Assembly (NCBI RefSeq): GCF_963921235.1
Contig: NC_086108.1
Location: 86,492,001 to 86,556,000 of the forward strand
DNA: 64,000 nucleotides
DNA from: Mobula hypostoma
Taxonomy: Eukaryota
Direction of reading: 5' to 3'
The first letter of the stretch is position 1; every line of letters starts with the position of its first letter. The notes under the pieces are model-generated. The model worked only from the letters and a program-made list of their open reading frames with translations. It was not told the DNA's origin and did not search any database. Positions 6,306 through 57,140 of this stretch are shown here, in pieces. Position numbers and translations under genes: made by a program.

Positions 6306-6491
6306 CTTTATATCTTAGGTGTTTCTAAAAGGCAGATTAAAATTTCTATGTGTAACCATTTGGACTATTCAACAACTTTTATAGGTAGAGTTGTAAAATG
6401 CCCCCATCCTCCACATACAGTGCAGATAAAAACAGTTTTGCTAATATCATAAGTACATGTCAGTGTGAAGTGTGAAGTAAATCACAGGTAT

Positions 6492-30232: not shown

Positions 30233-33200
30233 GTTCTGTGTCCCTGTCCAGGCCCTGGTTCCGGAGTTCCGTGTCACTAGTCCAGGCCCTGGTTCCGGAG
30301 TTCTGTGTCACTGTCCAGGCTCTGGTTCCGGAGTTCTGTATCACTAGTCCAGGCTCTGGTTCCGGAGTTCTGTGTCACTAGACCAGGCTCCGGTTCCGGA
30401 GTTCTGTGTCCCTGTCCAGGCTCTGGTTCCGGAGTTCTATGTCACTAGTCCAGGCTCTGGTTCCGGAGTTCCGTGTCACTAGTCCAGGCTCTGGTTCTGG
30501 AGTTTGGTGTCCCTGTCCAGGCGCTGGTTCCGGAGTTCCGTGTCCCTGTCCAGGCTCTGGTTCTGGAGTACAGTGTCACTAGTCCAGTCTCTGGTTCCGG
30601 AGTTCCGTGTCCCAGTCTAGGCTCTGGTTCCGGAATTCCGTGTCCCTGTCTAGCCTCTGGTTCCGGAGTTCTGTGTCCCTGTCCAGGCTCTGGTTCCGGA
30701 GTTCCGTGTCACTAGTCCAGGCTCTGGTTCCGGAGTTCTGTGTCCCTGTCCAGGCTCTGGTTCCAGAGTTCTGTGTCACTACACCAGGCTCTGGTTCCGG
30801 AGTTCCGTGTCCCTGTCCAGGCTCTGGTTCCGGAATTCCGTGTCCCTGGCTAGGCTCTGGTTCCGGAGTTCTGTGTCCCTGTCCAGGCTCTGGTTCCGGA
30901 GTTCGGTGTCACTAGTCCAGGCTCTGGTTACGGAGTTCTGTGTCCCTGTCCAGGCTCTGGTTCCAGAGTTCTGTGTCACTACACCAGGCTCTGCTTCCGG
31001 AGTTCCGTGTCCCTGTCCAGGCTCTGGTTCCGGAGTTCCGTGTCACTAGTCCAGGCTCTGGTTCCGGAGTTCTGTGTCACTAATCCAGGCCCTGGTTCCG
31101 GAGTTCTGTGTCCCTATCCAGGCCCTGGTTCCAGAGTTCTATGTCCCTGTCCAGGCTCTGGTTCCGGAGTTCCATGTCACTAGTCCAGGCTCTGGTTCCG
31201 GAGTTCTGTGTTCCTGTCCAGGCTCTGATTCTGGAGTTCCATGTCACTAGTCCAGGTCTGGTTCTGGAGTTCTGTGTCACTAGTCCAGGCTCTGGTTCCG
31301 GAGTTCTGTGTCGCTGTCCAGGCTCTGGTTCCGGAGTTCCGTGTCCCTGTCCAGGCTCTGGTTCCGGAGTTCTGTGTCACTAGTCCAGGCTCTGGTTCCG
31401 GAGTTCTGTGTCACTAGTCCAGGCTCTGGTTCCAGAGTTCTGTGTCAATAATCCAGGCCCTGGTTCCGGAGTTCCGTGTCCCTGTCCAGGCTCTGGTTCC
31501 GGAGTTCTGTGTCACTAGTCCAGGCTCTGGTTCCGGAATTCCGTGTCCCTGTCTAGGCTCTGGTTCCGGAGTTCTGTGTCACTAGTCTAGGCTCTGGTTC
31601 CGGAGTTCTGTGTCAATAGTTCAGGCTCTGGTTCCAGAGTTCCGTGTCACTAGTCCAGGCTCTGGTTCCAGAGTTCTGTGTCACTAGTCCAGGCTCTGGT
31701 TCCGGAGTTCTGTGTCCCTGTCTAGGCTCTGTTCCGGAGTTCTGTGTCATAGTCCAGGCTCTGCTTCCGGAGTTCCGTGTCCCTGTCCAGGCTCTGGTTC
31801 CGGAGTTCTGTGTCCCTGTCCAGGCTCTGGTTCCGGAGTTCCGTGTCCCTGTCTAGGCTCTGGTTCCGGAGTTCTGTGTCCCTGTCCAGGCTCTGTTTCC
31901 GGAGTTCCTGGTCACTAGTCCAGGCTCTGGTTCCGGAGTACTGTGTCCCTCTCAAGGCTCTGGTTCCGGAGTTCCGTGTCGCTAATCCAGGCCCTGGTTC
32001 CGGAGTTCTGTGTCCCTGTCCAGGCTCTGGTTCCGGAGTTCCGTGTCACTAGTCCAGGCACTGGTTCCGGAGTTCCGTGTCACTAGTCCAGGCTCTGCTT
32101 CCGGAGTTCCGTGTCCCTGTCCAGGCTCTGGTTCCGGAGTTCCGTGTCACTAGTCCAGGCTCTGGTTCCGGAGTTCTGTGTCACTAATCCAGGCCCTGGT
32201 TCCGGAGTTCTGTGTCCCTATCCAGGCCCTGGTTCCAGAGTTCTATGTCCCTGTCCAGGCTCTGGTTCCGGAGTTCCGTGTCACTAGTCCAGGCTCTGGT
32301 TCCGAAGTTCTGTGTTCCTGTCCAGGCTCTGATTCTGGAGTTCCATGTCACTAGTCCAGGTCTGGTTCTGGAGTTCTGTGTCACTAGTCCAGGCTCTGGT
32401 TCCGGAGTTCCGTGTCCCTGTCCAGGCCCCGGTTCCGGAGTTCCGTGTCCCTGTCCAGGCTCTGGTTCCGGAGTTCTGTGTCACTAGTCCAGGCTCTGGT
32501 TCCGGAGTTCTGTGTCACTCGTCCAGGCTCTGGTTCCGGAGTTCCATGTCCCTGTCCAGGCTCTGGTTCCGGAGTTCTGTGTCACTAGTCCAGGCTCTGG
32601 TTCCGGAGTTCCGTGTCACTAGTCCAGGCTCTGGTTCCGGAGTTCTGTGTCACTAATCCAGGCCCTGGTTCCGGAGTTCCGTGTCCCTGTCCAGGCTCTG
32701 GTTCCGGAGTTCTGTGTCACTAGTCCAGGCTCTGGTTCCGGAATTCCGTGTCACTGTCTAGGCTCTGGTTCCGGAGTTCTGTGTCACTAGTCTAGGCTCT
32801 GGTTCCAGAGTTCTGTGTCACTAGTTCAGGCTCTGGTTCCAGAGTTCCGTGTCACTAGTCCAGGTTCTGGTTCCAGAGTTCTGTGTCACTAGTCCAGGCT
32901 CTGGTTCCGGAGTTCTGTGTCCCTGTCTAGGCTCTGTTCCGGAGTTCTGTGTCACTAGTCCAGGCTCTGCTTCCGGAGTTCCGTGTCCCTGTCCAGGCTC
33001 TGGTTCCGGAGTTCTGTGTCACTAGTCCAGGCTCTGGTTCCGGAGTTCTGTGTCCCTGTCCAGGCTCTGGTTCCGGAGTTCCTGGTCACTAGTCCAGGCT
33101 CTGGTTCCGGAGTACTGTGTCCCTCTCAAGGCTCTGGTTCCGGAGTTCCGTGTCGCTAATCCAGGCCCTGGTTCCGGTGTTCCGTGTCACTAGTCCAGGC

Positions 33201-36200
33201 ACTGGTTCCGGAGTTCCGTGTTACATAGTCCAGGCTATGGTTCCGGAGTTCTGTGTCCCTGTCCAGGCTCTGGTTCCGGAGTTCCATGTCACTAGTCCAG
33301 GCTCTGGTTCTGGAGTTCTGTGTCACTAGTCCAGGCCCTGGTTCCGGAGTTCCATGTCGCTGTCCAGGCTCTGGTTCCGGAGTTCTGTGTCACTAGTCCA
33401 GGCTCTGGTTCTGGAGTTCTGTGTCCCTGTCCAGGCTCTGGTTCCGGAGTTCCCTGTCACTAGTCCAGGCTCTAGTTCCGGAGTTCTGTGTCCCTGTCCA
33501 GGCCCTGGTTCTGGAGTTCTGTGTCCCTGTCCAGGCTCTGGTTCCGCAGTTCCTGGTCACTAGTCCAGGCTCTGGTTCCGGAGTACTGTGTCCCTCTCAA
33601 GGCTCTGGTTCCGGAGTTCCGTGTCGCTAATCCAGGCCCTGGTTCCGGAGTTCTGTGTCCCTGTCCAGGCTCTGGTTCCGGAGTTCCGTGTCACTAGTCC
33701 AGGCACTGGTTCCGGAGTTCCGTGTTACATAGTCCAGGCTATGGTTCCGGAGTTCTGTGTCCCTGTCCAGGCTCTGGTTCCGGAGTTCCATGTCACTAGT
33801 CCAGGCTCTGGTTCCGGAGTTCTGTGTCACTAGTCCAGGCCCTGGTTCCGGAGTTCCGTGTCGCTGTCCAGGCTCTGGTTCCGGAGTTCCGTGTCACTAG
33901 TCCAGGCTCTGGTTCCGGAGTTCTGTGTCACTAGTCTAGGCTCTGGTTCCAGAGTTCTGTGTCACTAGTTCCAGGCTCTGGTTCCAGAGTTCCGTGTCAC
34001 TAGTCCAGGCTCTGGTTCCAGAGTTCCGTGTCACTAGTACAGGCTCTGGTTCCAGAGTTCTGTGTCACTAGTCCAGGCTCTGGTTCCGGAGTTCTGTGTC
34101 CCTGTCTAGGCTCTGTTCCGGAGTTCTGTGTCACTAGTCCAGGCTCTGCTTCCGGAGTTCCGTGTCACTAGTCCAGGCTCTGGTTCCGGAGTTCTGTGTC
34201 ACTAATCCAGGCCCTGGTTCCGGAGTTCCGTGTCGCTGTCCAGGCTCTGGTTCCGGAGTTCTGTGTCACTAGTCCAGGCTCTGGTTCCGGAGTTCTGTGT
34301 CACTAGTCTAGGCTCTGGTTCCAGAGTTCTGTGTCACTAGTTCAGGCTCTGGTTCCAGAGTTCCGTGTCACTAGTCCAGGCTCTGGTTCCAGAGTTCCGT
34401 GTCACTAGTCCAGGCTCTGGTTCCAGAGTTCTGTGTCACTAGTCCAGGCTCTGGTTCCGGAGTTCTGTGTCCCTGTCTAGGCTCTGTTCCGGAGTTCTGT
34501 GTCACTAGTCCAGGCTCTGCTTCCGGAGTTCCGTGTCCCTGTCCAGGCTCTGGTTCCGGAGTTCTGTGTCACTAGTCCAGGCTCTGGTTCCGGAGTTCTG
34601 TGTCCCTGTCCAGGCTCTGGTTCCGGAGTTCCTGGTCACTAGTCCAGGCTCTGGTTCCGGAGTACTGTGTCCCTCTCAAGGCTCTGGTTCCGGAGTTCCG
34701 TGTCGCTAATCCAGGCCCTGGTTCCGGTGTTCCGTGTCACTAGTCCAGGCACTGGTTCCGGAGTTCCGTGTTACATAGTCCAGGCTATGGTTCCGGAGTT
34801 CTGTGTCCCTGTCCAGGCTCTGGTTCCGGAGTTCCATGTCACTAGTCCAGGCTCTGGTTCTGGAGTTCTGTGTCACTAGTCCAGGCCCTGGTTCCGGAGT
34901 TCCATGTCGCTGTCTAGGCTCTGGTTCCGGAGTTCTGTGTCACTAGTCCAGGCTCTGGTTCTGGAGTTCTGTGTCCCTGTCCAGGCTCTGGTTCCAGAGT
35001 TCCCTGTCACTAGTCCAGGCTCTAGTTCCGGAGTTCTGTGTCCCTGTCCAGGCTCTGGTTCTGGAGTTCTGTGTCCCTGTCCAGGCTCTGGTTCCGCAGT
35101 TCCTGGTCACTAGTCCAGGCTCTGGTTCCGGAGTACTGTGTCCCTCTCAAGGCTCTGGTTCCGGAGTTCCGTGTCGCTAATCCAGGCCCTGGTTCCGGAG
35201 TTCTGTGTCCCTGTCCAGGCTCTGGTTCCGGAGTTCCGTGTCACTAGTCCAGGCACTGGTTCCGGAGTTCCGTGTTACATAGTCCAGGCTATGGTTCCGG
35301 AGTTCTGTGTCCCTGTCCAGGCTCTGGTTCCGGAGTTCCTTGTCACTAGTCCAGGCTCTGGTTCTGGAGTTCTGTGTCACTAGTCCAGGCCCTGGTTCCG
35401 GAGTTCGGTGTCGCTGTCCAGGCTCTGGTTCCGGAGTTCTGTGTCACTAGTCCAGGCTCTGGTTCTGGAGTTCTGTGTCCCTGTCCAGGCTCTGGTTCCG
35501 GAGTTCCCTCTCACTAGTCCAGGCTCTAGTTCCGGAGTTCTGTGTCCCTGTCCAGGCCCTGGTTCTGGAGTACTGTGTCCCTGTCCAGGCTATGGTTCCG
35601 GAGTTCTGTGTCCCTGTCCAGGCTCTGGTTCCGGAGTTCCATGTCACTAGTCCAGGCTCTGGTTCTGGAGTTCTGTGTCACTAGTCCAGGCCCTGGTTCC
35701 GGAGTTCCGTGTCGCTGTCCAGGCTCTGGTTCCGGAGTTCTGTGTCACTAGTCCAGGCTCTGGTTCTGGAGTTCTGTGTCCCTGTCCAGGCTCTGGTTCC
35801 GGAGTTCCCTCTCACTAGTCCAGGCTCTAGTGCCAGAGTTCTGTGTCCCTGTCCAGGCCCTGGTTCTGGAGTTCTGTGTCCCTGTCCAGGCTCTGGTTCA
35901 GGAGTTCCGTGTCACTAGTCCAGGCACTGGTTCCGGAGTTCCGTGTTACATAGTCCAGGCTATGGTTCCGGAGTTTGGTGTCCCTGTCCAGGCGCTGGTT
36001 CCGGAGTTCCGTGTCCCTGTCCAGGCTCTGGTTCTGGAGTACAGTGTCACTAGTCCAGTCTCTGGTTCCGGAGTTCCGTGTCCCAGTCTAGGCTCTGGTT
36101 CCGGAATTCCGTGTCCCTGTCTAGCCTCTGGTTCCGGAGTTCTGTGTCCCTGTCCAGGCTCTGGTTCCGGAGTTCCGTGTCACTAGTCCAGGCTCTGGTT

Positions 36201-39200
36201 CCGGAGTTCTGTGTCCCTGTCCAGGCTCTGGTTCCAGAGTTCTGTGTCACTACACCAGGCTCTGGTTCCGGAGTTCCGTGTCCCTGTCTAGGCTCTGGTT
36301 CCGGAATTCCGTGTCCCTGGCTAGGCTCTGGTTCCGGAGTTCTGTGTCCCTGTCCAGGCTCTGGTTCCGGAGTTCGGTGTCACTAGTCCAGGCTCTGGTT
36401 CCGGAGTTCTGTGTCCCTGTCCAGGCTCTGGTTCCGGAATTCCGTGTCCCTGGCTAGGCTCTGGTTCCGGAGTTCTGTGTCCCTGTCCAGGCTCTGGTTC
36501 CGGAGTTCGGTGTCACTAGTCCAGGCTCTGGTTCCGGAGTTCTGTGTCCCTGTCCAGGCTCTGGTTCCAGAGTTCTGTGTCACTACACCAGGCTCTGCTT
36601 CCGGAGTTCCGTGTCCCTGTCCAGCCTCTGGTTCCGGAGTTCCGTGTCACTAGTCCAGGCTCTGGTTCCGGAGTTCTGTGTCACTAATCCAGGCCCTGGT
36701 TCCGGAGTTCTGTGTCCCTATCCAGGCCCTGGTTCCAGAGTTCTATGTCCCTGTCCAGGCTCTGGTTCCGGAGTTCCATGTCACTAGTCCAGGCTCTGGT
36801 TCCGGAGTTCTGTGTTCCTGTCCAGGCTCTGATTCTGGAGTTCCATGTCACTAGTCCAGGTCTGGTTCTGGAGTTCTGTGTCACTAGTCCAGGCTCTGGT
36901 TCCGGAGTTCTGTGTCGCTGTCCAGGCTCTGGTTCCGGAGTTCCGTGTCCCTGTCCAGTCTCTGGTTCCGGAGTTCTGTGTCACTAGTCCAGGCTCTGGT
37001 TCCGGAGTTCTGTGTCACTAGTCCAGGCTCTGGTTCCGGAGTTCTGTGTCACTAATCCAGGCCCTGGTTCCGGAGTTCCGTGTCCCTGTCCAGGCTCTGG
37101 TTCCGGAGTTCTGTGTCACTAGTCCAGGCTCTGGTTCCGGAATTCCGTGTCCCTGTCTAGGCTCTGGTTCCGGAGTTCTGTGTCACTAGTCTAGGCTCTG
37201 GTTCCGGAGTTCTGTGTCAATAGTTCAGGCTCTGGTTCCAGAGTTCCGTGTCACTAGTCCAGGCTCTGGTTCTAGAGTTCTGTGTCACTAGTCCAGGCTC
37301 TGGTTCCGGAGTTCTGTGTCCCTGTCTAGGCTCTGTTCCGGAGTTCTGTGTCATAGTCCAGGCTCTGCTTCCGGAGTTCCGTGTCCCTGTCCAGGCTCTG
37401 GTTCCGGAGTTCTGTGTCCCTGTCCAGGCTCTGGTTCCGGAGTTCCGTGTCCCTGTCTAGGCTCTGGTTCCGGAGTTCTGTGTCCCTGTCCAGGCTCTGG
37501 TTCCGGAGTTCCTGGTCACTAGTCCAGGCTCTGGTTCCGGAGTACTGTGTCCCTCTCAAGGCTCTGGTTCCGGAGTTCTGTGTCCCTGTCCAGGCTCTGG
37601 TTCCGGAGTTCCATGTCACTAGTCCAGGCACTGGTTCCGGAGTTCCGTGTCACTAGTCCAGGCTCTGCTTCCGGAGTTCCGTGTCCCTGTCCAGGCTCTG
37701 GTTCCGGAGTTCTGTGTCACTAGTCCAGGCTCTGGTTCCGGAGTTCCGTGTCCCTGTCCAGGCCCCGGTTCCGGAGTTCCGTGTCCCTGTCCAGGCTCTG
37801 GTTCCGGAGTTCTGTGTCACTAGTCCAGGCTCTGGTTCCGGAGTTCTGTGTCACTCGTCCAGGCTCTGGTTCCGGAGTTCCATGTCCCTGTCCAGGCTCT
37901 GGTTCCGGAGTTCTGTGTCACTAGTCCAGGCTCTGGTTCCGGAGTTCCGTGTCACTAGTCCAGGCTCTGGTTCCGGAGTTCTGTGTCACTAATCCAGGCC
38001 CTGGTTCCGGAGTTCCGTGTCCCTGTCCAGGCTCTGGTTCCGGAGTTCTGTGTCACTAGTCCAGGCTCTGGTTCCGGAATTCCGTGTCACTGTCTAGGCT
38101 CTGGTTCCGGAGTTCTGTGTCACTAGTCTAGGCTCTGGTTCCAGAGTTCTGTGTCACTAGTTCAGGCTCTGGTTCCAGAGTTCCGTGTCACTAGTCCAGT
38201 CTCTGGTTCCAGAGTTCTGTGTCACTAGTCCAGGCTCTGGTTCCGGAGTTCTGTGTCCCTGTCTAGGCTCTGTTCCGGAGTTCTGTGTCACTAGTCCAGG
38301 CTCTGCTTCCGGAGTTCCGTGTCCCTGTCCAGGCTCTGGTTCCGGAGTTCTGTGTCACTAGTCCAGGCTCTGGTTCCGGAGTTCTGTGTCCCTGTCCAGG
38401 CTCTGGTTCCGGAGTTCCTGGTCACTAGTCCAGGCTCTGGTTCCGGAGTACTGTGTCCCTCTCAAGGCTCTGGTTCCGGAGTTCCGTGTCGCTAATCCAG
38501 GCCCTGGTTCCGGTGTTCCGTGTCACTAGTCCAGGCACTCGTTCCGGAGTTCCGTGTTACATAGTCCAGGCTATGGTTCCGGAGTTCTGTGTCCCTGTCC
38601 AGGCTCTGGTTCCGGAGTTCCATGTCACTAGTCCAGGCTCTGGTTCTGGAGTTCTGTGTCACTAGTCCAGGCCCTGGTTCCGGAGTTCCATGTCGCTGTC
38701 TAGGCTCTGGTTCCGGAGTTCTGTGTCACTAGTCCAGGCTCTGGTTCTGGAGTTCTGTGTCCCTGTCCAGGCTCTGGTTCCAGAGTTCCCTGTCACTAGT
38801 CCAGGCTCTAGTTCCGGAGTTCTGTGTCCCTGTCCAGGCCCTGGTTCTGGAGTTCTGTGTCCCTGTCCAGGCTCTGGTTCCGCAGTTCCTGGTCACTAGT
38901 CCAGGCTCTGGTTCCGGAGTACTGTGTCCCTCTCAAGGCTCTGGTTCCGGAGTTCCGTGTCGCTAATCCAGGCCCTGGTTCCGGAGTTCTGTGTCCCTGT
39001 CCAGGCTCTGGTTCCGGAGTTCCGTGTCACTAGTCCAGGCACTGGTTCCGGAGTTCCGTGTTACATAGTCCAGGCTATGGTTCCGGAGTTCTGTGTCCCT
39101 GTCCAGGCTCTGGTTCCGGAGTTCCATGTCACTAGTCCAGGCTCTGGTTCTGGAGTTCTGTGTCACTAGTCCAGGCCCTGGTTCCGGAGTTCCGTGTCGC

Positions 39201-42200
39201 TGTCCAGGCTCTGGTTCCGGAGTTCTGTGTCACTAGTCCAGGCTCTGGTTCTGGAGTTCTGTGTCCCTGTCCAGGCTCTGGTTCCGGAGTTCCCTCTCAC
39301 TAGTCCAGGCTCTAGTTCCGGAGTTCTGTGTCCCTGTCCAGGCCCTGGTTCTGGAGTACTGTGTCCCTGTCCAGGCTATGGTTCCGGAGTTCTGTGTCCC
39401 TGTCCAGGCTCTGGTTCCGGAGTTCCATGTCACTAGTCCAGGCTCTGGTTCTGGAGTTCTGTGTCACTAGTCCAGGCCCTGGTTCCGGAGTTCCGTGTCG
39501 CTGTCCAGGCTCTGGTTCCGGAGTTCTGTGTCACTAGTCCAGGCTCTGGTTCTGGAGTTCTGTGTCCCTGTCCAGGCTCTGGTTCCGGAGTTCCTCTCAC
39601 TAGTCCAGGCTCTAGTTACAGAGTTCTGTGTCCCTGTCCAGGCCCTGGTTCTGGAGTTCTGTGTCCCTGTCCAGGCTCTGGTTCAGGAGTTCCGTGTCAC
39701 TAGTCCAGGCACTGGTTCCGGAGTTCCGTGTTACATAGTCCAGGCTATGGTTCCGGAGTTCTGTGTCCCTGTCCAGGCGCTGGTTCCGGAGTTCCGTGTC
39801 CCTGTCCAGGCTCTGGTTCTGGAGTACAGTGTCACTAGTCCAGTCTCTGGTTCCGGAGTTCCGTGTCCCAGTCTAGGCTCTGGTTCCGGAATTCCGTGTC
39901 CCTGTCTAGCCTCTGGTTCCGGAGTTCTGTGTCCCTGTCCAGGCTCTGGTTCCGGAGTTCCGTGTCACTAGTCCAGGCTCTGGTTCCGGAGTTCTGTGTC
40001 CCTGTCCAGGCTCTGGTTCCAGAGTTCTGTGTCACTACACCAGGCTCTGGTTCCGGAGTTCCGTGTCCCTGTCTAGGCTCTGGTTCCGGAATTCCGTGTC
40101 CCTGGCTAGGCTCTGGTTCCGGAGTTCTGTGTCCCTGTCCAGGCTCTGGTTCCGGAGTTCTGTGTCACTAGTCCAGGCTCTGGTTCCGGAGTTCTGTGTC
40201 ACTCGTCCAGGCTCTGGTTCCGGAGTTCCGTGTCACTAGTCCAGGCTCTGGTTCCGGAGTTCTGTGTCCCTGTCCAGGCTCTGGTTCCGGAGTTCGGTGT
40301 CACTAGTCCAGGCTCTGGTTCCGGAGTTCTGTGTCCCTGTCCAGGCTCTGGTTCCAGAGTTCTGTGTCACTACACCAGGCTCTGCTTCCGGAGTTCCGTG
40401 TCCCTGTCCAGCCTCTGGTTCCGGAGTTCCGTGTCACTAGTCCAGGCTCTGGTTCCGGAGTTCCCTGTCACTAGTCCAGGCTCTAGTTCCGGAGTTCTGT
40501 GTCCCTATCCAGGCCCTGGTTCCAGAGTTCTATGTCCCTGTCCAGGCTCTGGTTCCGGAGTTCCATGTCACTAGTCCAGGCTCTGGTTCCGGAGTTCTGT
40601 GTTCCTGTCCAGGCTCTGATTCTGGAGTTCCATGTCACTAGTCCAGGCTCTGGTTCTGGAGTTCTGTGTCACTAGTCCAGGCTCTGGTTCCGGAGTTCTG
40701 TGTCGCTGTCCAGGCTCTGGTTCCGGAGTTCCGTGTCCCTGTCCAGGCTCTGGTTCCGGAGTTCTGTGTCACTAGTCCAGGCTCTGGTTCCGGAGTTCTG
40801 TGTCACTAGTCCAGGCTCTGGTTCCGGAGTTCTGTGTCACTAATCCAGGCCCTGGTTCCGGAGTTCCGTGTCCCTGTCCAGGCTCTGGTTCCGGAGTTCT
40901 GTGTCACTAGTCCAGGCTCTGGTTCCGGAATTCCGTGTCCCTCTCTAGGCTCTGGTTCCGGAGTTCTGTGTCACTAGTCTAGGCTCTGGTTCCGGAGTTC
41001 TGTGTCAANNNNNNNNNNNNNNNNNNNNNNNNNNNNNNNNNNNNNNNNNNNNNNNNNNNNNNNNNNNNNNNNNNNNNNNNNNNNNNNNNNNNNNNNNNNN
41101 NNNNNNNNNNNNNNNNNNNNNNNNNNNNNNNNNNNNNNNNNNNNNNNNNNNNNNNNNNNNNNNNNNNNNNNNNNNNNNNNNNNNNNNNNNNNNNNNNNNN
41201 NNNNNNNNTGTTCCGTGTCACTAGTCCAGGCACTGGTTCCGGAGTTCCGTGTTACATAGTCCAGGCTATGGTTCCGGAGTTCTGTGTCCCTGTCCAGGCT
41301 CTGGTTCCGGAGTTCCATGTCACTAGTCCAGGCTCTGGTTCTGGAGTTCTGTGTCACTAGTCCAGGCCCTGGTTCCGGAGTTCCATGTCGCTGTCCAGGC
41401 TCTGGTTCCGGAGTTCTGTGTCACTAGTCCAGGCTCTGGTTCTGGAGTTCTGTGTCCCTGTCCAGGCTCTGGTTCCGGAGTTCCCTGTCACTAGTCCAGG
41501 CTCTAGTTCCGGAGTTCTGTGTCCCTGTCCAGGCCCTGGTTCTGGAGTTCTGTGTCCCTGTCCAGGCTCTGGTTCCGCAGTTCCTGGTCACTAGTCCAGG
41601 CTCTGGTTCCGGAGTACTGTGTCCCTCTCAAGGCTCTGGTTCCGGAGTTCCGTGTCGCTAATCCAGGCCCTGGTTCCGGAGTTCTGTGTCCCTGTCCAGG
41701 CTCTGGTTCCGGAGTTCCGTGTCACTAGTCCAGGCACTGGTTCCGGAGTTCCGTGTTACATAGTCCAGGCTATGGTTCCGGAGTTCTGTGTCCCTGTCCA
41801 GGCTCTGGTTCCGGAGTTCCATGTCACTAGTCCAGGCTCTGGTTCTGGAGTTCTGTGTCACTAGTCCAGGCCCTGGTTCCGGAGTTCCGTGTCGCTGTCC
41901 AGGCTCTGGTTCCGGAGTTCTGTGTCACTAGTCCAGGCTCTGGTTCTGGAGTTCTGTGTCCCTGTCCAGGCTCTGGTTCCGGAGTTCCCTCTCACTAGTC
42001 CAGGCTCTGGTTCCGGAATTCCGTGTCCCTGTCCAGGCCCCGGTTCCGGAGTTCCGTGTCCCTGTCCAGGCTCTGGTTCCGGAGTTCTGTGTCACTAGTC
42101 CAGGCTCTGGTTCCGGAGTTCTGTGTCACTCGTCCAGGCTCTGGTTCCGGAGTTCCATGTCCCTGTCCAGGCTCTGGTTCCGGAGTTCTGTGTCACTAGT

Positions 42201-45200
42201 CCAGGCTCTGGGTCCGGAGTTCCGTGTCACTAGTCCAGGCTCTGGTCCCGGAGTTCTGTGTCACTAATCCAGGCCCTGGTTCCGGAGTTCCGTGTCGCTG
42301 TCCAGGCTCTGGTTCCGGAGTTCTGTGTCACTAGTCCAGGCTCTGGTTCCGGAGTTCTGTGTCACTAGTCTAGGCTCTGGTTCCAGAGTTCTGTGTCACT
42401 AGTTCAGGCTCTGGTTCCAGAGTTCCGTGTCACTAGTCCAGGCTCTGGTTCCAGAGTTCCGTGTCACTAGTCCAGGCTCTGGTTCCAGAGTTCTGTGTCA
42501 CTAGTCCAGGCTTTGGTTCCGGAGTTCTGTGTCCCTGTCTAGGCTCTGTTCCGGAGTTCTGTGTCACTAGTCCAGGCTCTGCTTCCGGAGTTCCGTGTCC
42601 CTGTCCAGGCTCTGGTTCCGGAGTTCTGTGTCACTAGTCCAGGCTCTGGTTCCGGAGTTCTGTGTCCCTGTCCAGGCTCTGGTTCCGGAGTTCCTGGTCA
42701 CTAGTCCAGGCTCTGGTTCCGGAGTACTGTGTCCCTCTCAAGGCTCTGGTTCCGGAGTTCCGTGTCGCTAATCCAGGCCCTGGTTCCGGTGTTCCGTGTC
42801 ACTAGTCCAGGCACTGGTTCCGGAGTTCCGTGTTACATAGTCCAGGCTATGGTTCCGGAGTTCTGTGTCCCTGTCCAGGCTCTGGTTCCGGAGTTCCATG
42901 TCACTAGTCCAGGCTCTGGTTCTGGAGTTCTGTGTCACTAGTCCAGGCCCTGGTTCCGGAGTTCCGTGTCGCTGTCTAGGCTCTGGTTCCGGAGTTCTGT
43001 GTCACTAGTCCAGGCTCTGGTTCTGGAGTTCTGTGTCCCTGTCCAGGCTCTGGTTCCGGAGTTCCCTGTCACTAGTCCAGGCTCTAGTTCCGGAGTTCTG
43101 TGTCCCTGTCCAGGCCCTGGTTCTGGAGTTCTGTGTCCCTGTCCAGGCTCTGGTTCCGCAGTTCCTGGTCACTAGTCCAGGCTCTGGTTCCGGAGTACTG
43201 TGTCCCTCTCAAGGCTCTGGTTCCGGAGTTCCGTGTCGCTAATCCAGGCCCTGGTTCCGGAGTTCTGTGTCCCTGTCCAGGCTCTGGTTCCGGAGTTCCG
43301 TGTCACTAGTCCAGGCACTGGTTCCGGAGTTCCGTGTTACATAGTCCAGGCTATGGTTCCGGAGTTCTGTGTCCCTGTCCAGGCTCTGGTTCCGGAGTTC
43401 CATGTCACTAGTCCAGGCTCTGGTTCTGGAGTTCTGTGTCACTAGTCCAGGACCTGGTTCCGGTGTTCCGTGTCGCTGTCCAGGCTCTGGTTCCGGAGTT
43501 CTGTGTCACTAGTCCAGGCTCTGGTTCTGGAGTTCTGTGTCCCTGTCCAGGCTCTGGTTCCGGAGTTCCCTCTCACTAGTCCAGGCTCTAGTTCCGGAGT
43601 TCTGTGTCCCTGTCCAGGCCCTGGTTCTGGAGTTCTGTGTCCCTGTCCAGGCTATGGTTCCGGAGTTCTGTGTCCCTGTCCAGGCTCTGGTTCCGGAGTT
43701 CCATGTCACTAGTCCACGCTCTGGTTCTGGAGTTCTGTGTCACTAGTCCAGGCCCTGGTTCCGGAGTTCCGTGTCGCTGTCCAGGCTCTGGTTCCGGAGT
43801 TCTGTGTCACTAGTCCAGGCTCTGGTTCTGGAGTTCTGTGTCCCTGTCCAGGCTCTGGTTCCGGAGTTCCCTCTCACTAGTCCAGGCTCTAGTTCCAGAG
43901 TTCTGTGTCCCTGTCCAGGCCCTGGTTCTGGAGTTCTGTGTCCCTGTCCAGGCTCTGGTTCAGGAGTTCCGTTTCACTAGTCCAGGCACTGGTTCCGGAG
44001 TTCCGTGTTACATAGTCCAGGCTCTGGTTCCGGAGTTCTGTGTCCCTGTCCAGGCTCTGGTTCCGGAGTTCCATGTCACTAGTCCAGGCTCTGGTTCTGG
44101 AGTTCTGTGTCACTAGTCCAGGCCCTGGTTCCGGAGTTCCATGTCGCTGTCCAGGCTCTGGTTCCGGAGTTCTGTGTCACTAGTCCAGGCTCTGGTTCTG
44201 GAGTTCTGTGTCCCTGTCCAGGCTCTGGTTCCGGAGTTCCCTGTCACTAGTCCAGGCTCTAGTTCCGGAGTTCTGTGTCCCTGTCCAGGCCCTGGTTCCG
44301 GAGTTCCGTGTCCCTGTCCAGGCTCTGGTTCCGCAGTTCCTGGTCACTAGTCCAGGCTCTGGTTCCGGAGTACTGTGTCCCTCTCAAGGCTCTGGTTCCG
44401 GAGTTCCGTGTCGCTAATCCAGGCCCTGGTTCCGGAGTTCTGTGTCCCTGTCCAGGCTCTGGTTCCAGAGTTCCGTGTCACTAGTCCAGGCACTGGTTCC
44501 GGAGTTCCGTGTTACATAGTCCAGGCTATGGTTCCGGAGTTCTGTGTCCCTGTCCAGGCTCTGGTTCCGGAGTTCCATGTCACTAGTCCAGGCTCTGGTT
44601 CTGGAGTTCTGTGTCACTAGTCCAGGCCCTGGTTCCGGAGTTCCGTGTCGCTGTCCAGGCTCTGGTTCCGGAGTTCTGTGTCAGTAGTCCAGGCTCTGGT
44701 TCTAGAGTTCTGTGTCCCTGTCCAGGCTCTGGTTCCGGAGTTCCCTCTCACTAGTCCAGGCTCTAGTTCCGGAGTTCTGTGTCCCTGTCCAGGCCCTGGT
44801 TCTGGAGTTCTGCGTCCCTGTCCAGGCTCTGGTTCCGCAGTTCTGTGTCCCTGTCCAGGCTCTGGTTCCGGAGTTCCATGTCACTAGTCCAGGCTCTGGT
44901 TCTGGAGTTCTGTGTCACTAGTCCAGGCTCTGGTTCCAGAGTTCTGTGTCCCTCTCCAGGCTCTGGTTCCGGAGTTCCGTGTCACTAGTCCAGGCTCTGG
45001 TTCCGGAGTTCCGAGTCACTAGTCCAGGCTCTGGTTCCGGAGTTCCATGTCACTAGTCCAGGCTCTGGTTCCGGAGTTCCGTGTCGCTGTCCAGGCTCTG
45101 GTTCCGGAGTTCTGTGTCACTAGTCCAGGCTCTGGTTCCGGAGTTCCGTGTCCCTGTCTAGGCTCTGGTTCCGGAATTCCGTGTCCCTGTCTAGGCTCTG

Positions 45201-46872
45201 GTTCCGGAGTTCTGTGTCCCTGTACAGGCTCTGGTTCCGGAGTTCGGTGTCACTAGTCCAGGCTCTGGTTCCGGAGTTCTGTGTCCCTGTCCAGGCTCTG
45301 GTTCCAGAGTTCTGTGTCACTACACCAGGCTCTGCTTCCGGAGTTCCGTGTCCCTGTCCAGGCTCTGGTTCCGGAGTTCCATGTCACTAGTCTAGGTCTG
45401 GTTCTGGAGTTCTGTGTCACTAGTCCAGGCTCTGGTTCCGGAGTTCTGTGTCCCTGTCCAGGCTCTGGTTCCAGAGTTCTGTGTCACTACACCAGGCTCT
45501 GCTTCCGGAGTTCTGTGTTCCTGTCCAGGCTCTGATTCTGGAGTTCCATGTCACTAGTCTAGGTCTGGTTCTGGAGTTCTGTGTCACTAGTCCAGGCTCT
45601 GGTTCCGGAGTTCTGTGTCGCTGTCCAGGCTCTGGTTCCGGAGTTCTGTGTCACTAGTCCAGGCTCTGGTTCCGTAGTTCCATGTCCCTGTCCAGGCCCC
45701 GGTTCCGGAGTTCTGTGTTCCTGTCCAGGCTCTGGTTCCGGAGTTCTGTGTCACTAGTCCAGGCTCTGGTTCCGGAGTTCTGTGTCACTCGTCCAGGCTC
45801 TGGTTCCGGAGTTCCATGTCCCTGTCCAGGCTCTGGTTCCGGAGTTCTGTGTCACTAGTCCAGGCTCTGGTTCCGGAGTTCCGTGTCACTAGTCCAGGCT
45901 CTGGTTCCGGAGTTCTGTGTCACTAATCCAGGCCCTGGTTCCGGAATTCCGTGTCCCTGTCCAGGCTCTGGTTCCGGAGTTCTGTGTCACTAGTCCAGGC
46001 TCTGGTTCCGGAGTTCTGTGTCCCTGTCCAGGCTCTGGTTCCGGAGTTCCGTGTCCCTGTCTAGGCTCTGGTTCCGGAGTTCCATGTCGCTAATCCAGGC
46101 CCTGGTTCCGGAGTTCTGTGTCCCTGTCCAGGCTCTGGTTCCGGAGTTCCATGTCACTAGTCCAGGCTCTGGTTCTGGAGTTCTGTGTCACTAGTCCAGG
46201 CCCTGGTTCCGGAGTTCCGTGTCGCTGTCCAGGCTCTGGTTCCGGAGTTCTGTGTCACTAGTCCAGGCTCTGGTTCTGGAGTTCTGTGTCCCTGTCCAGG
46301 CTCTGGTTCCGGAGTTCCCTGTCACTAGTCCAGGCTCTAGTTCCGGAGTTCTGTGTCCCTGTCCAGGCCCTGGTTCTGGAGTTCTGTGTCCCTGTCCAGG
46401 CTCTGGTTCCGCAGTTCTGTGTCCCTGTCCAGGCTCTGGTTCCGGAGTTCCATGTCACTAGTCCAGGCTCTGGTTCTGGAGTTCTGTGTCACTAGTCCAG
46501 GCTCTGTTTCCAGAGTTCTGTGTCCCTCTCCAGGCTCTGGTTCCAGAGTTCCGTGTCACTAGTCCAGGCTCTGGTTCCGGAGTTCCGAGTCACTAGTCCA
46601 GGCTCTGGTTCCGGAGTTCCATGTCACTAGTCCAGGCTCTGGTTCCGGAGTTCTGTGTCCCTGTCTAGGCTCTAGTTCCGGAGTTCTGTGTCCCTGTTCA
46701 GGCTCTGGTTCCGGAGTTCTGTGCCACTAGTCCAGGCTCTGGTTCCGGAGTTCTGTGTCCCTGTCTAGGTTCTAGTTCCAGAGTTCCGTGTCACTAGTCC
46801 AGGCTCTAGTTCCGGAGTTCTGGGTCCTTGTCCAGGCTCTGGTTCCAGAGTTCCGTGTCACTAGTCCAGGCT
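30233..46872. repeat. 33/34-bp tandem satellite, roughly 490 units, with higher-order repeats
   Basis: Monomer GTCCAGGCTCTGGTTCCGGAGTTC(T/C)GTGTC followed by CCT (33 bp) or ACTA (34 bp). The unit count is estimated as length divided by 33.5. Confidence 0.98.
41009..41208. other. Assembly gap (200 N) within the satellite
   Basis: Run of exactly 200 N, most likely a placeholder size. Confidence 0.98.
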
Positions 46873-48176
46873 CCTTGTTCCCAGTTCCTTGTCCTGGTCC
46901 CGCTTGCCAAGCCAATGTCCTAGCCCAAGTCTGTGTTCTTGTCCCAGCTCTCTAGTCAGGTCCTGTTCCTATTACTTCAGTGTCTGTGTCTTGCATTTGG
47001 GTCCGCCCCCAGTGCCCCCCGTTACGACACTCTATCAAGGCCTTTCTCCATTCTATAGGTTATATAGAATGCCTATTGACATTCAACAGCATTTTACTTC
47101 AATGTAAGTAAATTCTCACCATCTTCAATCTGTGGGCCTCTTTCATTAGGTGGTGTCAGCTCTGTTTAATGAAGATTGAGGGAGATGGGAAGATGCGATC
47201 TGCAATTCATGACATAATTTTATTTGTATTTTCAAATGATTAAAGGGCTGCAGTAGAAACACAGCAAAGAAGCAATGGGCCAGATGGCTCCTTTTATTCA
47301 GTGTTTAAAACATACTACAAACGTGTATTAGCGTAGGTCAGATTTTCATATCTGATAATATATTGATCTTTGGCTTGCAGTGCGAATGGTGTAAGCAGAA
47401 CAAACATAATCAGACCCATTCGAGTACCATCCACCAACTCCCTTCATTTGGTTGGCAAGAAGCATTAATTACTTTGATGTTAAGGTTTCATTTACATTCA
47501 AGTGACATCGGTTTAAGTGCAAATAGGTAGCTCTGAAATTGGGAGGTTTAAAAATATGGGAGCCATAACAGGTACTAAACTTAAGCTCTTAAGGGAAGCA
47601 TTGGCTGTTAGTGATTTTTTTTTAATGATGCCTCTATTGATTGATTGATATGCAAGTCAGCTTGTTAACAAACTGCCAGAATCCCATTGAATCCTAGCAA
47701 CAATCTTAGACATGGTTTGTAACAATTGGTGATGAGAGAAGACAGATGAACGCTGAAATAGAACATAGAACAGTACAGCACAGGAACAGGACCTTTGACC
47801 CACAATGTTGTCCTGAGTCAATTAAATTGGTAATTAAATGGCCAACAAGAAGCAGTGTAAGAAATGATGAAGGTATCATATACACACAGAGAACATTCTG
47901 GTGCTCAAGTATGAACACTGGAGGGGTTGTCTGTGTGTTCGTGAAGCAGGCAAGCTGGTATGCCAGCTTATATGTGAACAGCACAGGATTCCCTGTAGGT
48001 GAGAGAGTTAATGCTTCCACAGGGAGCAACTACCCACAAGGTTATTGAGAAACTGATTGTTACTTAACTTGCCTGCAAAGGCTCACTGGATTTTATTCCT
48101 GTAGTGTCCTCTCCTAACAGCAACCTACTAATTGGGAGTAAACTAGCAGTTGCTGAAGCTGTTGATGGTTGCTGAC

Positions 48177-51280: not shown

Positions 51281-51917
51281 AAACAAGTAGGATGGGGGCT
51301 GCTCATAACTTGAAAATTGGAGTAGTTGATGTTGCACAGGTTACCAAGGAATTTAAAAACAAGTATGAGAACCAAGAACAAGTGTAGGTTAGTGAGTACT
51401 GTAGGATGGGTGAACAGGATTAGGCGTAATTTAGGGCAGAGATAGAAAAGTAATGGAAAGTCTGGAAATACCAAGGACAAGTTTCAGCACCAGAGAGGCT
51501 GAGCAGGATGCAAATTGGACAATATTCTCTCAGTGCTCAGAATTATATATTTCACCATATAGATATTTGCAGAGGGCATTGTTTCTTTGCCTGTTAACTT
51601 AGAATAACAAGGCACTTATTTGTTTGTTCAAATTCAGGTTTCAGATTTAGATTTATTTATCGCATGTATTTGGAAACATAAAGTAAAATGCATAATTTGC
51701 ATTAACAATCAGCACACCTAAGAATGTGCTGGGGGCATGGAACCCTTGAACACTTTTTAAAAATATATTATTTCTGTTTTTACACGATTTTTAATCCATT
51801 CAATATACGTATACTGTTATTTATTTATTTATTTTCTATATTATGTATGGTATTGAACTGCTACTGCTAAGTTAACAAATTTCATGACACACGCTGGTGA
51901 TAGTAAACCTGATTCTG

Positions 51918-52540: not shown

Positions 52541-53217
52541 CAACGCAGATAGAAAAACTTAAGAAACCTGATGAAAGTTGAAAAAAGATATCATTAAGGG
52601 AATCTGATTGCTCAAGTCAATGTTCTAGTAGTGACAAGAGTAACAGAACTCCAGCGGATTAAACACGTGAGAAAAATGGAGGGCTCTGGGGAGGGAAGGG
52701 TGAGATTGATCTTGGAATAGGTGAAAAGGTCAGCACAGTGCCGTAGCCTGCAGGGCCTATACTGGTGTATGTTCTATATCATGGAGCTAACAACCAAGCA
52801 AATTATAAACATAATCTGAATGATGTCTCCCAAATTTATGATTGCTGCCACAGTAATGGTTAGTTTAACCTTGTTTAACCTCATGGAGGTCTGCTAATTT
52901 TACATATCACATTGATTAACTTTCTGCTAATTTGAATGGAACGGAATTCAAATCGATTGTAAAAGACTTGTACATTTATCACCATGCATGCTTCAGTTGA
53001 AAACCCCAAATATTTCAATTCAGCTGAGACTGGAAATTTCTCCCTGAACTTTTCCTATTTATTTGTTGAACCATGAAATAAAATCCAAAACATGAACATC
53101 AGAGATTCAGCAGATTAATCAGAACCAGGTTTATTATAATCAGGTTTATTATCGTTGACATAGGTCGTGAAATTTGTTGCTTTGCGGTAGCAGAACATTG
53201 CAAGACAGAAAAATTAG

Positions 53218-53497
53218 CATTCATTACAGCGGACTCTAAGACTCCTTGGAGTTAAAGGACTGCAGTGCAGAAGAGCCACCGAGAACATTCTGGAGGCTGC
53301 TGAAAAGGCCTCGCAGTGGCTGTGGATCCGGAGGGGGATCCGTGGATTAGTGCGCCGCTTGGACACAAGTCAGGGGCTGATCACCCCCGGCTGGGTCACC
53401 CGGTCGAGGTTGTCTGATGGTTAAAGACCCAAAACCCCCTGTGACCCCGGGTTCATCACTGAAGACGTGTCCAAGTAGCACCAGAAGATGTATTCTG
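53218..53497 (+). repeat. Upstream copy of the element's 3' end (pseudo-LTR)
   Basis: Aligns end to end with 56862-57140; about 29 differences counted by eye (~90% identity). Confidence 0.93.
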
Positions 53498-53728
53498 TGA
53501 CCTGTAGGAAAGTCTGGATGACGGCCATGAATAGAATGGTGACGGCTGGAGAGACAGCAGACAGCACGGAAAGACGGCAAACGGGGCAGCAAGGGCTAGC
53601 ACCCTGAACTGCAGCTCCTGTGAGGGAGCACCCAAACAAGCTACGAAGAACCCTTCTGAAACATACCCCCAGGGATGCTCGAGAGGGGGGGGGAGGATGA
53701 GCATCCCAATCGGACGGACCTATTGGCA

Positions 53729-56700
53729 ATGACTCAAGCAGGTGGACGATCGACTATGAGCGTAGTTTGTATCTGTGGCAAGGTGTGCAAATACCTGAGA
53801 GGTCTGAAGATCCACCAGACAAAGATGGCCTGCTCGAGGAGGAAACAAGTGAAGCAACGCACAGGAGCAGTAGCTAGTACTACAAGCTCTGTGGTGCTGA
53901 CTACAGAACCTGGTCAGACAGAGGAGGAGCCCAGTCGGAGTCACCCCACAGTGCCCGGAGCCTCCAAGCAACACAAGTCCGCCCAGTGAGCAGAAAGTCG
54001 GAACAGCGTCAGGCGAAGTGGCCTGCCGCTAACAAGAAGGAGTGGCTCCAGATGGATGAGGACGTAGACAAGATTCTGGAGGCGATATCGAAGGGCAATG
54101 CTGACTAGGAGCTCCAGACTATGTGCACCCTCATAATGAGCATAGGCTCAGAATGGTTTGGCGTCAAGGAAAAGCATGGAACAAGTAATCCAGCGAGACC
54201 AAACCGGCAGGAACTGAAGATCAGCCAGCTGAGACAAGACCTCAAATCTCTGAAGCACCAATTTAAGTTGGCCAAGGAGGAGGAGAAAACTGGCCTGTCA
54301 GACCTCACAGATATCATGAGGAGGAGGCTCATCACACTCAGGTGGGCTGAGTGGCACCGAAGGAAGGGCAAGGAGAGGGCCCAAAGCGCAGCGCTTTCAT
54401 TACCAATCCCTTCGGCTTCACCAAGAGGATACTAGGACAGAAGCGAAGTGGCCACCTCACTTGTTCTGTAGTGGAGATAAACCAACATCTCAGTATCACT
54501 TGCAGTGACACCTCGAAAGAGCAGGACCTCGGCCCGTGTGAGGCACTGGTGATACCTCCAGAACCGGTGACCCAATTCGACATTTCTGAACCCACCCTGA
54601 AGGAGGTCAAAGAAGCAGTCGAAGCAGCAAGAGCAAGTTCCACCCCTAGCCCCAGTGGAGTGCCTTACAAAGACTACAAGCAGTGCCCAAGGCTCCTTGT
54701 GCGACTCTGGAAGATCTTAAAGGTGATCTGGCAGAGAGGAAAGGTCGCTGCTCAGTGGAGGCACGCGGAGGGTGTCTGGATACCAAAAGAGGAGGATTCA
54801 AGCAACATCGAGCAGTTTTATATTATCTCGCTGCTCAGCGTTGAAGGGAAGATCTTCAAGATTGTGGCCCAATGTTTAACTGAGTTCCTCTTGAAGAATG
54901 GATACATAGACACCTCAGTACAGAAGGGGGGAGTCCCAGGAGTACCTGGATGCCTGGGGCACACAGGAGTGGTGGTCCAGCTGATCCGGGAGGCAAGGGA
55001 GAACAGAGGAGACCTTGCAGCACTCTGGTTAGGCCTAACCAATGCCTATGGATCCATCCCACACAAACTCATTGAAACAGCACTGACAAGACATCACGTT
55101 CCAGAGATGATCCGAAACCTCATTCTGGATTATTACAGCGACTTCAGGTTGAGAGTGTCCTCAGGGTCAGTAACATCCGCCTGGCATCGGCTGGAGAAGG
55201 GCACAATCACTGGCTGCACAATCTCGGTGCCACTCTTCTGATTGGCCATGAACCTGATTGTCAAGTCAGCGGAGGTGGGATGTAGAGGCCCCACGTCTAG
55301 ATCTGGTACTCGGCAGCCCCCATAAGAGCATTCATGGATGACCTGGTGGTGATGGCAACATCCGTCCCTGGGTGCAGATGGCTCCTTCCAGGGCTGGAAT
55401 GGCTCATCTCATGGGCAAGGATGAGCTTTAAACCAGCCAAGTCCAGGTCTCTGGTCCTGAAGAAGGGAAGAGTGGCCGACTGGTTCCGCTTTACCCTGGG
55501 AGGGATCCAGATTCCAACGGTGACAGGAAAACCAGTCAAGGGCCTGGGCAAGATCTTTGACAGTTCCCTGAAGGACACAGCCGCACTTCAACAAACCAGG
55601 AGTGAGGAGTGACTTGATAACTTGGCTCACCGCAATTGATAAACCGGAGCTTCCAGGAAAATTCAAAACCTGGATGTACCAACACGGAGTCCTGCCAAGG
55701 CCATTCTGGCCCCTTCTAGTCTACGAGGTGCCAATGTCAACAGTGGGGGCTCTAGGGAAGACCATCAGTCAGTTTCTCCGGAGGTCACTGGGTCTCCCCC
55801 GGACCTCAAGCTGCATTGTCCTGTATGGGTGTTCCACCAAGCTGCAGCTCCCCGTCAGCGGCCTATCAGAGGAGTTCAAAATCACTCGAGCCAGGGAGGT
55901 TATGATGTACCGAGACTCCTCTGATGTTAAAGTCGCTTCAGCAGGAATCCGCGTAAAGACCGGAAGGAAGTGGCAGGCACAGGAAGCTGTCGACAGAGCG
56001 GAGGTACGGCTGCGGCTCAACATTTTGGTGGCCACTGTGGCGGTGGGGCGGGAAAGACTGGGCTGTTTTCCCAAACCACGCTACGACAAAACCCGTGGAA
56101 AGGAGAAGTATCAACTGGTTCAGGATGAGATATGAGCGGAAGTGGAGGAAGAACGATACAGCAAGATGGCCGGCATGTACAAACAAGGCGCCTGGACTAG
56201 ATGGGAGCATGTGGAACCTCGCAAGCTCACCTGGACAGAGCTCTGGAGGGCCGAACCATTGCGCATCAAGTTTCTCATCCAATCAGTCTATGATGTTCTC
56301 CCAAACCCGGCCAACCTGCACAGGTGGGGCATGGCAAACACTCCAGCATGCCAACTGTGCCAGAAGAGGGGCACCTTGGAACATATCCTAAGTTGCTGCC
56401 CAAAGGCATTGGGGGAAGGGCGAAACTGCTGGCGCCATGACCAAATCTTAAGGTCTATGGCGGATGCAATCAGCACAGCGATTCAAGACAGCAAAAATCA
56501 GCACGCTCCCAAACAGTCCATCACCTTTATTAGAGCGGGGGAGAAGGCTCAACATCGGCCTAGTTCCTTGAGAGGGCTTCTTGCCACTGCACGAGACTGG
56601 CAGCTCCAAGCAGACCTAGGGAGGCACCTCGAGTTCCCAGAGAACATCGCAGCCACTCCGCTCCGTCCGGACATGGTGTTAATATCGGAGTCTACAAAGC

Positions 56701-57060
56701 AAGTGGTCCTGCTGGAACTTACTGTCCCCTGGGAAGACTGGATTGAAGAGGCCAACGAGCACCAGGGGGCTAGATGCACAGATCTTGTTGCAGAATGCTG
56801 GAGCAATGGCTGGAGAGCTCGCTGTGAGCCAGTCGAAGTTGGGTGCCGGGGCTTTGCGGGCCATTCATTACAGCGGACTCTAAACTCCTTGGAGTTAAAG
56901 GACTGCAGTGCAGAAGAGCCACCAAGAACATTCTGGAGGCTTCTGAAAGGGCTTCATGGTGGCTGTAGATCTGGAGGGGGGCTCCATGGATTAATGCACT
57001 ACTTGGACACAAGTCAGGGGCTGATCACTTCCGGCTGGGTCGCCCAGTCGAGGATGTACG
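53729..57060 (+). pseudogene. Disrupted RT-endonuclease ORF of the HERO-like element
   Basis: CICGKVCKYLRGLKIHQTKMAC finger; ISLLSVEGKIF; WLGLTNAYGSIPH; FMDDL; CQLCQKRGTLEHILSCC; WRHDQIL; RPDMVL..LLELTVPWE; EVGCRGF. Stops at 54105, 55239 and 56133 plus several frameshifts. Confidence 0.9.
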
Positions 57061-57140
57061 ATGATTAAAGGGCCAAAACCCCCTGTGACCCCGGGTCATC
57101 ACTGAAGACGTGTCCAAGTAGCACCAGAAGGTGTATTCTG
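56862..57140 (+). repeat. 3' end of the HERO-like element (downstream repeat copy)
   Basis: Contiguous with the endonuclease coding region; matches 53218-53497. Confidence 0.93.

Follow-up and report, generated by a model that had tools for sequence, protein, structure and literature searches.

A dead copy of a HERO-clade retrotransposon, a non-LTR element (one without long terminal repeats) with a restriction-like endonuclease, lies in a 64,000-nucleotide stretch of the Mobula hypostoma genome (RefSeq assembly GCF_963921235.1, contig NC_086108.1, positions 86,492,001 to 86,556,000, forward strand; hereafter the window, numbered from its first letter) and carries part of its own 3' end in front of its 5' end. 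This tail-before-head layout, or pseudo-LTR, is a trait of the clade and not peculiar to the locus. As judged from alignments, the repeated 3' untranslated region (UTR) holds a conserved, covarying RNA fold carrying a hammerhead core with its blocks in the order cleavage site, GAAA, CUGAnGA. Such a permuted hammerhead-like domain appears to be undescribed; it is well supported as a structure, and its catalysis is predicted. A single insertion from a longer-than-unit template is the likeliest reading of the locus, and we lean slightly towards the fuller proposal that the element was inserted once from such a template by way of a ribozyme-made circle and internal priming.

The pseudo-LTR at the locus and in relatives

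Positions 53218-53497 align with 56862-57140 over 281 columns at 89.7% identity (E 2e-102; Kimura two-parameter distance 0.10), with 26 substitutions (21 transitions and 5 transversions) and three one-base gaps. A sequence-only reading of the window had described a head-to-tail repeat of about 280 bp with some 90% identity and mainly transitional differences, and the alignment bears it out on each count. The extra base that it had seen in the upstream copy is the G at 53240, deleted downstream; as the upstream copy is itself short of one base, near 53332-53338, each copy keeps a base lost by the other. It was also right that no poly(A) follows 57140 and that no target-site duplication flanks the element: the 40-nt flanks share at most 7-mers, and these do not abut both ends. 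The left junction, 53217|53218, is spanned with 0 differences by a contig of sequencing run X1, which may be the source sample, and the element body extends beyond 53218 in loose ends of contigs from run X9. No further copies of the element were found within the window. The left flank, 53138-53207, is where a different repeat ends, one of very high copy number (X1 depth as high as about 46,000); look-alikes of this flank lie at 6757-6813 and 51858-51914.

As for relatives, a metagenome scan yielded 31 homologous loci, and the layout was counted over the eight homologous element starts with a recognisable 5' motif. In six of them (L002, L005, L007, L009, L013 and, on its minus strand, L011) a 3' end immediately precedes the start; this upstream end begins 70, 94, at least 104 and at least 126 nt ahead of the 5' motif in relatives, and 280 nt ahead in the window. 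The window and these six starts show the partial tandem layout that reportedly defines Zebulon-type elements, namely the element's own 3' end before its 5' end at variable length. The upstream repeats of L002 and L005 are 99% and 92% identical to their own ends, both reaching the contig start, while those of L013 and the L011 minus element are short pieces, starting 94 and 70 nt before the motif, with unique DNA ahead. The count is weakened by L007 and L009, which are wrapped contigs that could be tandems, circles or assembly collapse (L009 being counted by protein order only), and by the two starts without an upstream 3' end, L010 and the L011 plus element. Longer-than-unit insertion throughout the clade is nonetheless highly probable in our view.

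Some of these loci are of interest in their own right. L009 (positions 1-3824), a distant relative at 44% protein identity, keeps the 5' motif, and its tail and head are joined through a terminal overlap of 25 nt; the locus lacks a hammerhead match, and its 3' UTR may hold another structure. L011 (positions 1-7504) contains two different HERO elements on opposite strands, back to back, with 5' starts about 470 nt apart. Of the 31 listed protein matches known only from Logan or ENA, 14 sit on contigs of 3.6-4.1 kb, near unit length, as expected of collapsed repeats or circles and also of selection for long open reading frames (ORFs).

The absence of a spacer between the upstream 3' end and the 5' UTR, another claim of the sequence-only reading, holds for this copy but not for its relatives, in which a CTGG-loop-CCAG hairpin precedes the conserved 5' motif. 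Since the window retains only the first three bases of this hairpin, about 10 nt of it being gone, its exact junction is a local loss. Contig record 28 of X9, from another organism, bridges the junction (53453-53619) with 10 extra letters left of 53504. The recurrence proposed as a check holds for the layout, with variable upstream length, and not for the exact junction 53497|53498, which is absent among the matches listed in sequencing-run contigs (32; 8477 more), relatives having 10 to about 27 more nt. That no X1 contig crosses this point among those same matches would suit a local DNA duplication or an assembly artefact with no biological meaning. We consider this highly improbable: the repeats differ at 29 columns and are thus not one sequence written twice, and other organisms share the layout, with unique DNA ahead in two cases (L013 and L011 minus), as does the X9 contig.

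A hammerhead-like domain in the repeated 3' UTR

Eleven 3' UTR sequences, including both window copies and with L021 kept outside, were aligned by sequence only. The repeated 3' UTR contains the core blocks CUGAnGA, GAAA and an NUH cleavage site, arranged non-circularly as site-GAAA-CUGAnGA, and the complete core, with H not G, is found in 8 of the 11 loci with a 3' UTR. Positions U4, G5, A6, A9, A13, A14, A15.1 and C15.2 and the G-C pair beside GAAA are invariant in all 11 rows. C3 and G8 hold in ten of the 11, each of the four bases occurs at position 7, and a C or A stands at the cleavage position in all ten rows having a letter there. In L001, L007 and L021 the predicted cut falls 3' of positions 3496, 3255 and 2547, respectively.

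Across the 11 sequences the six helices are paired in 88.2% of cells, and both sides vary in 20 of the 38 pairs. None of 500 shuffles paired as well, although column shuffles can be beaten by kin sequences without structure, and slid controls gave 30-48%. Stems I and III are both paired with covariation (93% of cells with four of six pairs changing on both sides, and 87% with two of six, respectively). The strand preceding GAAA finds its partner upstream (87% paired, with an invariant G-C), a separate long helix is closed by the one that follows CUGAnGA, and no stem II 5' strand directly follows A9 within one or two inserted bases. Canonical stem II pairing was tried and rejected: it paired 65.5% of cells, was equalled by 238 of 500 shuffles and had no pair changing on both sides. 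The fold also has a bulge that we take to resemble a kink-turn motif. Minimum free energy folding recovered the nested helices and not the pseudoknots (z -1.4 to -4.8 in six sequences; upstream window copy -1.7). L021, at 47% protein identity, keeps the helix layout with different letters. It lacks the palindromic TGATCA loop of hairpin P0 (53378-53383 and 57022-57027 in the window), which is invariant in the 11 aligned rows and is a possible kissing-loop dimerisation site; the domain may fold as a monomer or as a strand-swapped dimer.

When both strands of the window and of the 31 loci were scanned with a descriptor, the strict matches numbered eight (scores 29-35) and lay without exception in HERO 3' UTRs, covering 8 of the 11 loci that have such a region, as against two matches, scoring 25 and 26, in 20 shuffled sets of 95,465 nt. 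Beyond its training set, covariance model R1 detected only the upstream fragments of L002, L005, L013 and L011 minus. Rfam returned no ribozyme family among six matches at E ≤ 10 in the window region, and no ribozyme among ten matches at E ≤ 5 in 12 of the 31 loci. Intact members of the family probably possess an active hammerhead-type ribozyme, and the earlier guess that the repeat supplies a processing signal gains a concrete candidate in this hammerhead-like core.

Several observations weigh against an active ribozyme and against its part in this insertion. G12 is kept in 7 of 11 rows only; it is changed in both window copies, L016 and L027, whose ORFs are all broken. In the window the core of each repeat is damaged, with A at G12 and two mismatches in stem III. 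If this damage came from the template, the insertion was made from RNA with a damaged ribozyme, and an efficient one was not needed. The G12 change, carried by 37% of the X1 depth, can also be parallel CpG decay or conversion in the window copies. The core is incomplete in L009, L016, L027 and both window copies, and the descriptor failed on the same sequences. It was devised after the sequences, L021 included, had been seen, so that its matches are no held-out test, and covariance model R1 missed L021 and L009. The TGATCA loop, which is no part of the core, is as invariant as the core in the 11 rows. Lastly, the published permutation scheme assumes that A9 runs on into the 5' strand of stem II, and here it does not.

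One insertion or two

Outgroups polarise the repeat differences as 12 derived upstream and 16 downstream, with two left unassigned, and this split supports the longer-than-unit template suggested by the sequence-only reading. The idea that the upstream repeat is the younger, as it keeps more CpGs (8 of 10 CpG transitions), was dropped on the same outgroup counts. Both repeats also share letters that are rare in X1, at 53436, 53441 and 53372, where the family letter makes up 97, 93 and 88% of the depth. X1 depth is a rough guide only, and four high-depth variant rows at 53384-53405 were set aside as probably another repeat.

Alternatively, an older full-length copy might have received a 5'-truncated one at its 5' end, through an endonuclease preferring the element's own start. 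Repeat divergence of about 10%, mostly in 53299-53428, is as high as that between unrelated family copies (2693 of the 3431 X1 contigs aligned, flank repeats included, are less than 90% alike), and the window junction is unlike that of relatives. Two separate events would still be an improbable origin, given the 12 to 16 split, the rare alleles common to both repeats and the 99% identity of the L002 repeats. Moreover, X1 depth falls from 2613 at 53488 to 47 at 53504, which suggests that most 3' ends have no 5' UTR after them; by this rough guide, less than 2% of the 3'-end depth runs into a 5' UTR. The suggestion that the element targets its own 3' end is disfavoured by this drop. HERO elements are also reported to lack target specificity in the available part of PMC3636483. 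By eye, the flanks of the loci that were fetched differ.

The substitutions are unevenly placed. Twenty-four of the 26 fall in 53299-53428, while 53218-53280 (63 nt) and 53429-53487 (59 nt) are free of them and the rest differs by about 18%; the clustering has P about 2e-4, for a statistic picked after the data had been seen. Gene conversion between the window repeats may therefore have produced the rare letters that they share, which lessens the weight of these letters for a single insertion.

A proposed circular template and its alternative

The predicted cuts, after 53414 and 57058, delimit a 3644-nt unit. Measured from the predicted cut, the element's 3' end is 83 nt further on, and the upstream repeat extends back by 197 nt. 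A linear RNA cut at both sites cannot template such an insertion unless a jump occurs; internal priming on a ligated circle can account for it. In the mechanism that we propose, a transcript running through both repeats would self-cleave at the two NUH sites and free the unit RNA, which would then be ligated into a circle. The reverse transcriptase (RT) would prime internally about 83 nt beyond the cut, just before the 5' UTR hairpins, copy a full round and keep going until it dissociates, so that a second, truncated 3' end comes to lie ahead of the 5' end. Only those copies whose upstream piece contains the ribozyme could become parents again. Taken by itself, we regard a circular template as an even proposition.

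Just past the presumed priming site, the window (53498-53700) and the homologous 5' UTRs have a hairpin array with TGAC before each hairpin. The array covaries in eight sequences, 22 of 43 predicted pairs changing on both sides, and has no Rfam match. It is a candidate protein-binding array and could hold the RT at that place.

A longer-than-unit copy might also be made with no circle, from an uncut tandem or read-through transcript or by a jump of the RT from the 5' end of the RNA to a 3' end, for which the template jumping of R2-like elements and the redundant ends of TART and HeT-A offer precedents. The 3' UTR fold would then be a protein binder or a slow or regulated ribozyme. Such copying explains the same layout with the same variable lengths. 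It sits well with the damaged core common to both window repeats, with the tail-to-head join of L009, which has no descriptor match, and with a split stem II that has no precedent in the literature compared. A mere binding site, however, would not explain why all three core blocks are conserved, why position 7 is free to vary and why G is excluded at the cut, nor is it clear from such copying why the junction lies at the same place, before the same hairpin, across different families. Uncut tandem templates would presumably also shorten upstream with each generation unless rebuilt. We take copying with no circle to be rather unlikely, though the likeliest competitor of the ribozyme-made circle.

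Element body and other features of the window

The features of the element are collected in Table 1. Its architecture is that of one ORF with an RT, then a CCHC knuckle and then a PD..D restriction-like endonuclease. Pfam searches of the six ORF pieces gave zf-RVT (E 1e-6) and, below the cut-off, RVT_1 (E 0.0012), and none of the GIY-YIG endonuclease or telomerase-like RT families that would mark a Penelope-like element. The RT piece has 439 longer relatives at E ≤ 1e-20, and among the matches listed (120 of 439) the named ones come from fishes and amphioxus. The aligned ORF is 67% identical to BAC82598.1 of Takifugu (1022 residues), 58% to BAC82599.1 of Tetraodon (1029) and 50% to BAC82600.1 of Danio (817). 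Consecutive accessions in the same species order suggest that these are the HEROFr, HEROTn and HERODr proteins. The window RT is 65-70% identical to all three, as against a match to R2 at E 3e-7, and its nearest solved structures are R2 proteins, which are distant. In a 30-row RT tree, with no named outgroup from other clades, it falls in a 10-row set with BAC82598.1 (support 98/95). Protein matches and tree support the HERO-like identity first proposed from the window alone.

The genome contig collection gave a single match, L032 (positions 1-412), a 75% identical RT fragment without UTRs on a 412-nt scaffold of a bacterial genome record, which is probably eukaryotic contamination. The viral contig collection gave no match to the element protein or to a short 3' UTR motif. 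Elsewhere in the window, a 34-bp unit is repeated in tandem about 496 times over 30233-46881. This array is strongly AT-skewed and interrupted by a 200-N gap (41009-41208); it may be an expansion inside another repeat, its flanks being similar to 18107-19035.

Table 1. Positions of the element's features in the window
Feature	Position	Strand	Remarks
Upstream pseudo-LTR	53218..53497	+	5'-truncated; repeats the final 280 nt of the element (endonuclease coding end and 3' UTR)
Hammerhead-like RNA domain, upstream copy	53358..53475	+	from 3' UTR alignment, helix pairing and covariance model R1 (copy in training set)
Closing helix E, upstream copy	53358-67/53466-75	+	predicted
Hairpin P0, upstream copy	53369-91	+	predicted
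Stem II-like helix, upstream copy	53393-97/53426-30	+	predicted
Helix C, upstream copy	53399-403/53447-51	+	predicted
Stem III, upstream copy	53408-13/53434-39	+	predicted
Cleavage site, upstream copy	after 53414	+	predicted; GUC
Stem I, upstream copy	53415-20/53453-58	+	predicted
GAAA site, upstream copy	53431-34	+	first base A here
CUGAnGA, upstream copy	53459-65	+	core block
5' UTR	53498..53755	+	conserved start motif and hairpin array with purine-rich loops; about 10 nt of first hairpin gone
Broken single ORF of HERO element	53756..56989	+	six aligned pieces, changing frames, five stops (aligned against P0003)
N-terminal Cys/His motif	53768-53830	+	conserved in 32 aligned relatives
RT motif FMDD	55331-42	+	within broken ORF
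CCHC knuckle	56349-99	+	within broken ORF
Restriction-like endonuclease motifs (PD..D)	56664-56735	+	after CCHC knuckle
Downstream repeat copy	56862..57140	+	genuine 3' end of the element; no poly(A), no target-site duplication
Hammerhead-like RNA domain, downstream copy	57002..57118	+	cut predicted after 57058 (GUA); damage affects more helices than in the upstream copy

Relation to known elements and ribozymes

The pseudo-LTR layout itself is probably already known for the clade. By its title, a 2003 paper of Bouneau et al. (Genome Res 13:1686) reports a non-LTR element with a tandem structure in Tetraodon; the element is reportedly Zebulon, with a restriction-like endonuclease and partial tandem arrays, and we know of no ribozyme in that account. 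A Tetraodon polyprotein, AAN12398.1, which we take to belong to Zebulon, is 57% identical to our element and clusters with BAC82599.1. Given that title and a Tetraodon protein among the relatives, the layout is probably not new. 'Zebulon' received one passing mention in the literature searched, a body of text with most subscription papers outside its coverage.

If the fold cleaves, it would be a hammerhead topology found in nature, in animal genomes, that runs counter to an assumption made in the published permutation scheme and that Rfam misses. It would also offer a testable mechanism for the rebuilding of terminal repeats in non-LTR elements, a question shared with Penelope-like and pufferfish tandem elements, and two unrelated retroelement classes would have converged on ribozyme, circle and internal priming. 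Since R2-group proteins are under development for gene insertion, one that primes inside a circular RNA would have practical interest.

Members of the HERO clade (HEROFr, HEROTn, HERODr) likewise have a single ORF with RT, CCHC knuckle and restriction-like endonuclease. The available portions of PMC7650587, PMC3636483, PMC2790886 and PMC13580325 make no mention of terminal repeats or a ribozyme in HERO. According to the accessible text of PMC2790886, HERO has no Cys/His motif upstream of the RT, unlike the elements studied here, in which one is conserved. As for R2, of the same retrotransposon group, the accessible part of PMC6765202 describes a 5' hepatitis delta virus (HDV)-like ribozyme that frees the element RNA from a longer transcript; it differs in ribozyme class and in its 5' location, and R2 shows site-specific insertion into ribosomal DNA and has no pseudo-LTR.

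Penelope-like elements are closer in logic. As the available portions of PMC4209133 and PMC11167929 have it, they share partial tandem insertion, a hammerhead in the repeat and a proposed circular template. The ribozyme-circle model for Penelope repeats, whose pseudo-LTRs contain hammerheads, was proposed in PMC4209133 and also appears in PMC6765202, and internal priming was shown in vitro for one Penelope protein (PMC11167929), as far as these partial texts go. Penelope elements encode a telomerase-like RT and a GIY-YIG nuclease and have type I or minimal hammerheads, whereas an R2-group RT and a pseudoknotted block order are found here.

The nearest ribozymes are the type-SGC hammerheads of PMC10085705, non-circularly permuted forms in the order site-GAAA-CUGAnGA that, in the accessible part of that paper, cleave in vitro. 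They share with the HERO domain the block order, a short linker from stem I to stem II and the conserved core. The scheme in that paper, to the same extent, assumes that CUGAnGA stays joined to both stems. The S-G-C block order is present in the HERO domain, but an uninterrupted block of CUGAnGA with both adjacent stem strands is not: type-SGC stem II consists of the strand after CUGAnGA and the strand before GAAA, whereas the latter pairs upstream here. The HERO fold additionally has a hairpin and a kink-turn-like bulge with conserved bases. The available text of PMC10085705 has 'retrotranspos' in its references only, the main text lacks 'fish', and one supplement file lacks 'Danio'. The literature covered, limited as stated above, contains no paper linking hammerhead, Hero, retrotransposon and ribozyme and uses SGC terms only in PMC10085705, and 'hero' is absent from the accessible parts of a ribozyme review and a 2026 retrozyme preprint. 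The hammerhead-like domain of HERO is likely to be new.

By analogy, this domain would work like a type-SGC hammerhead while failing one defining feature of the type. Tentatively, and with somewhat less than even confidence, we picture HERO elements as autonomous members of the R2 group that replicate through ribozyme-made circular RNA, with a 3' UTR that is an active hammerhead of four blocks in an undescribed order (stem II strand, site, GAAA, CUGAnGA), possibly dimeric through its palindromic loop, and with a pseudo-LTR that arose independently of Penelope's and follows the same logic. Compared with the systems above, the domain looks like a hammerhead and probably works like one, yet it belongs to no described type.

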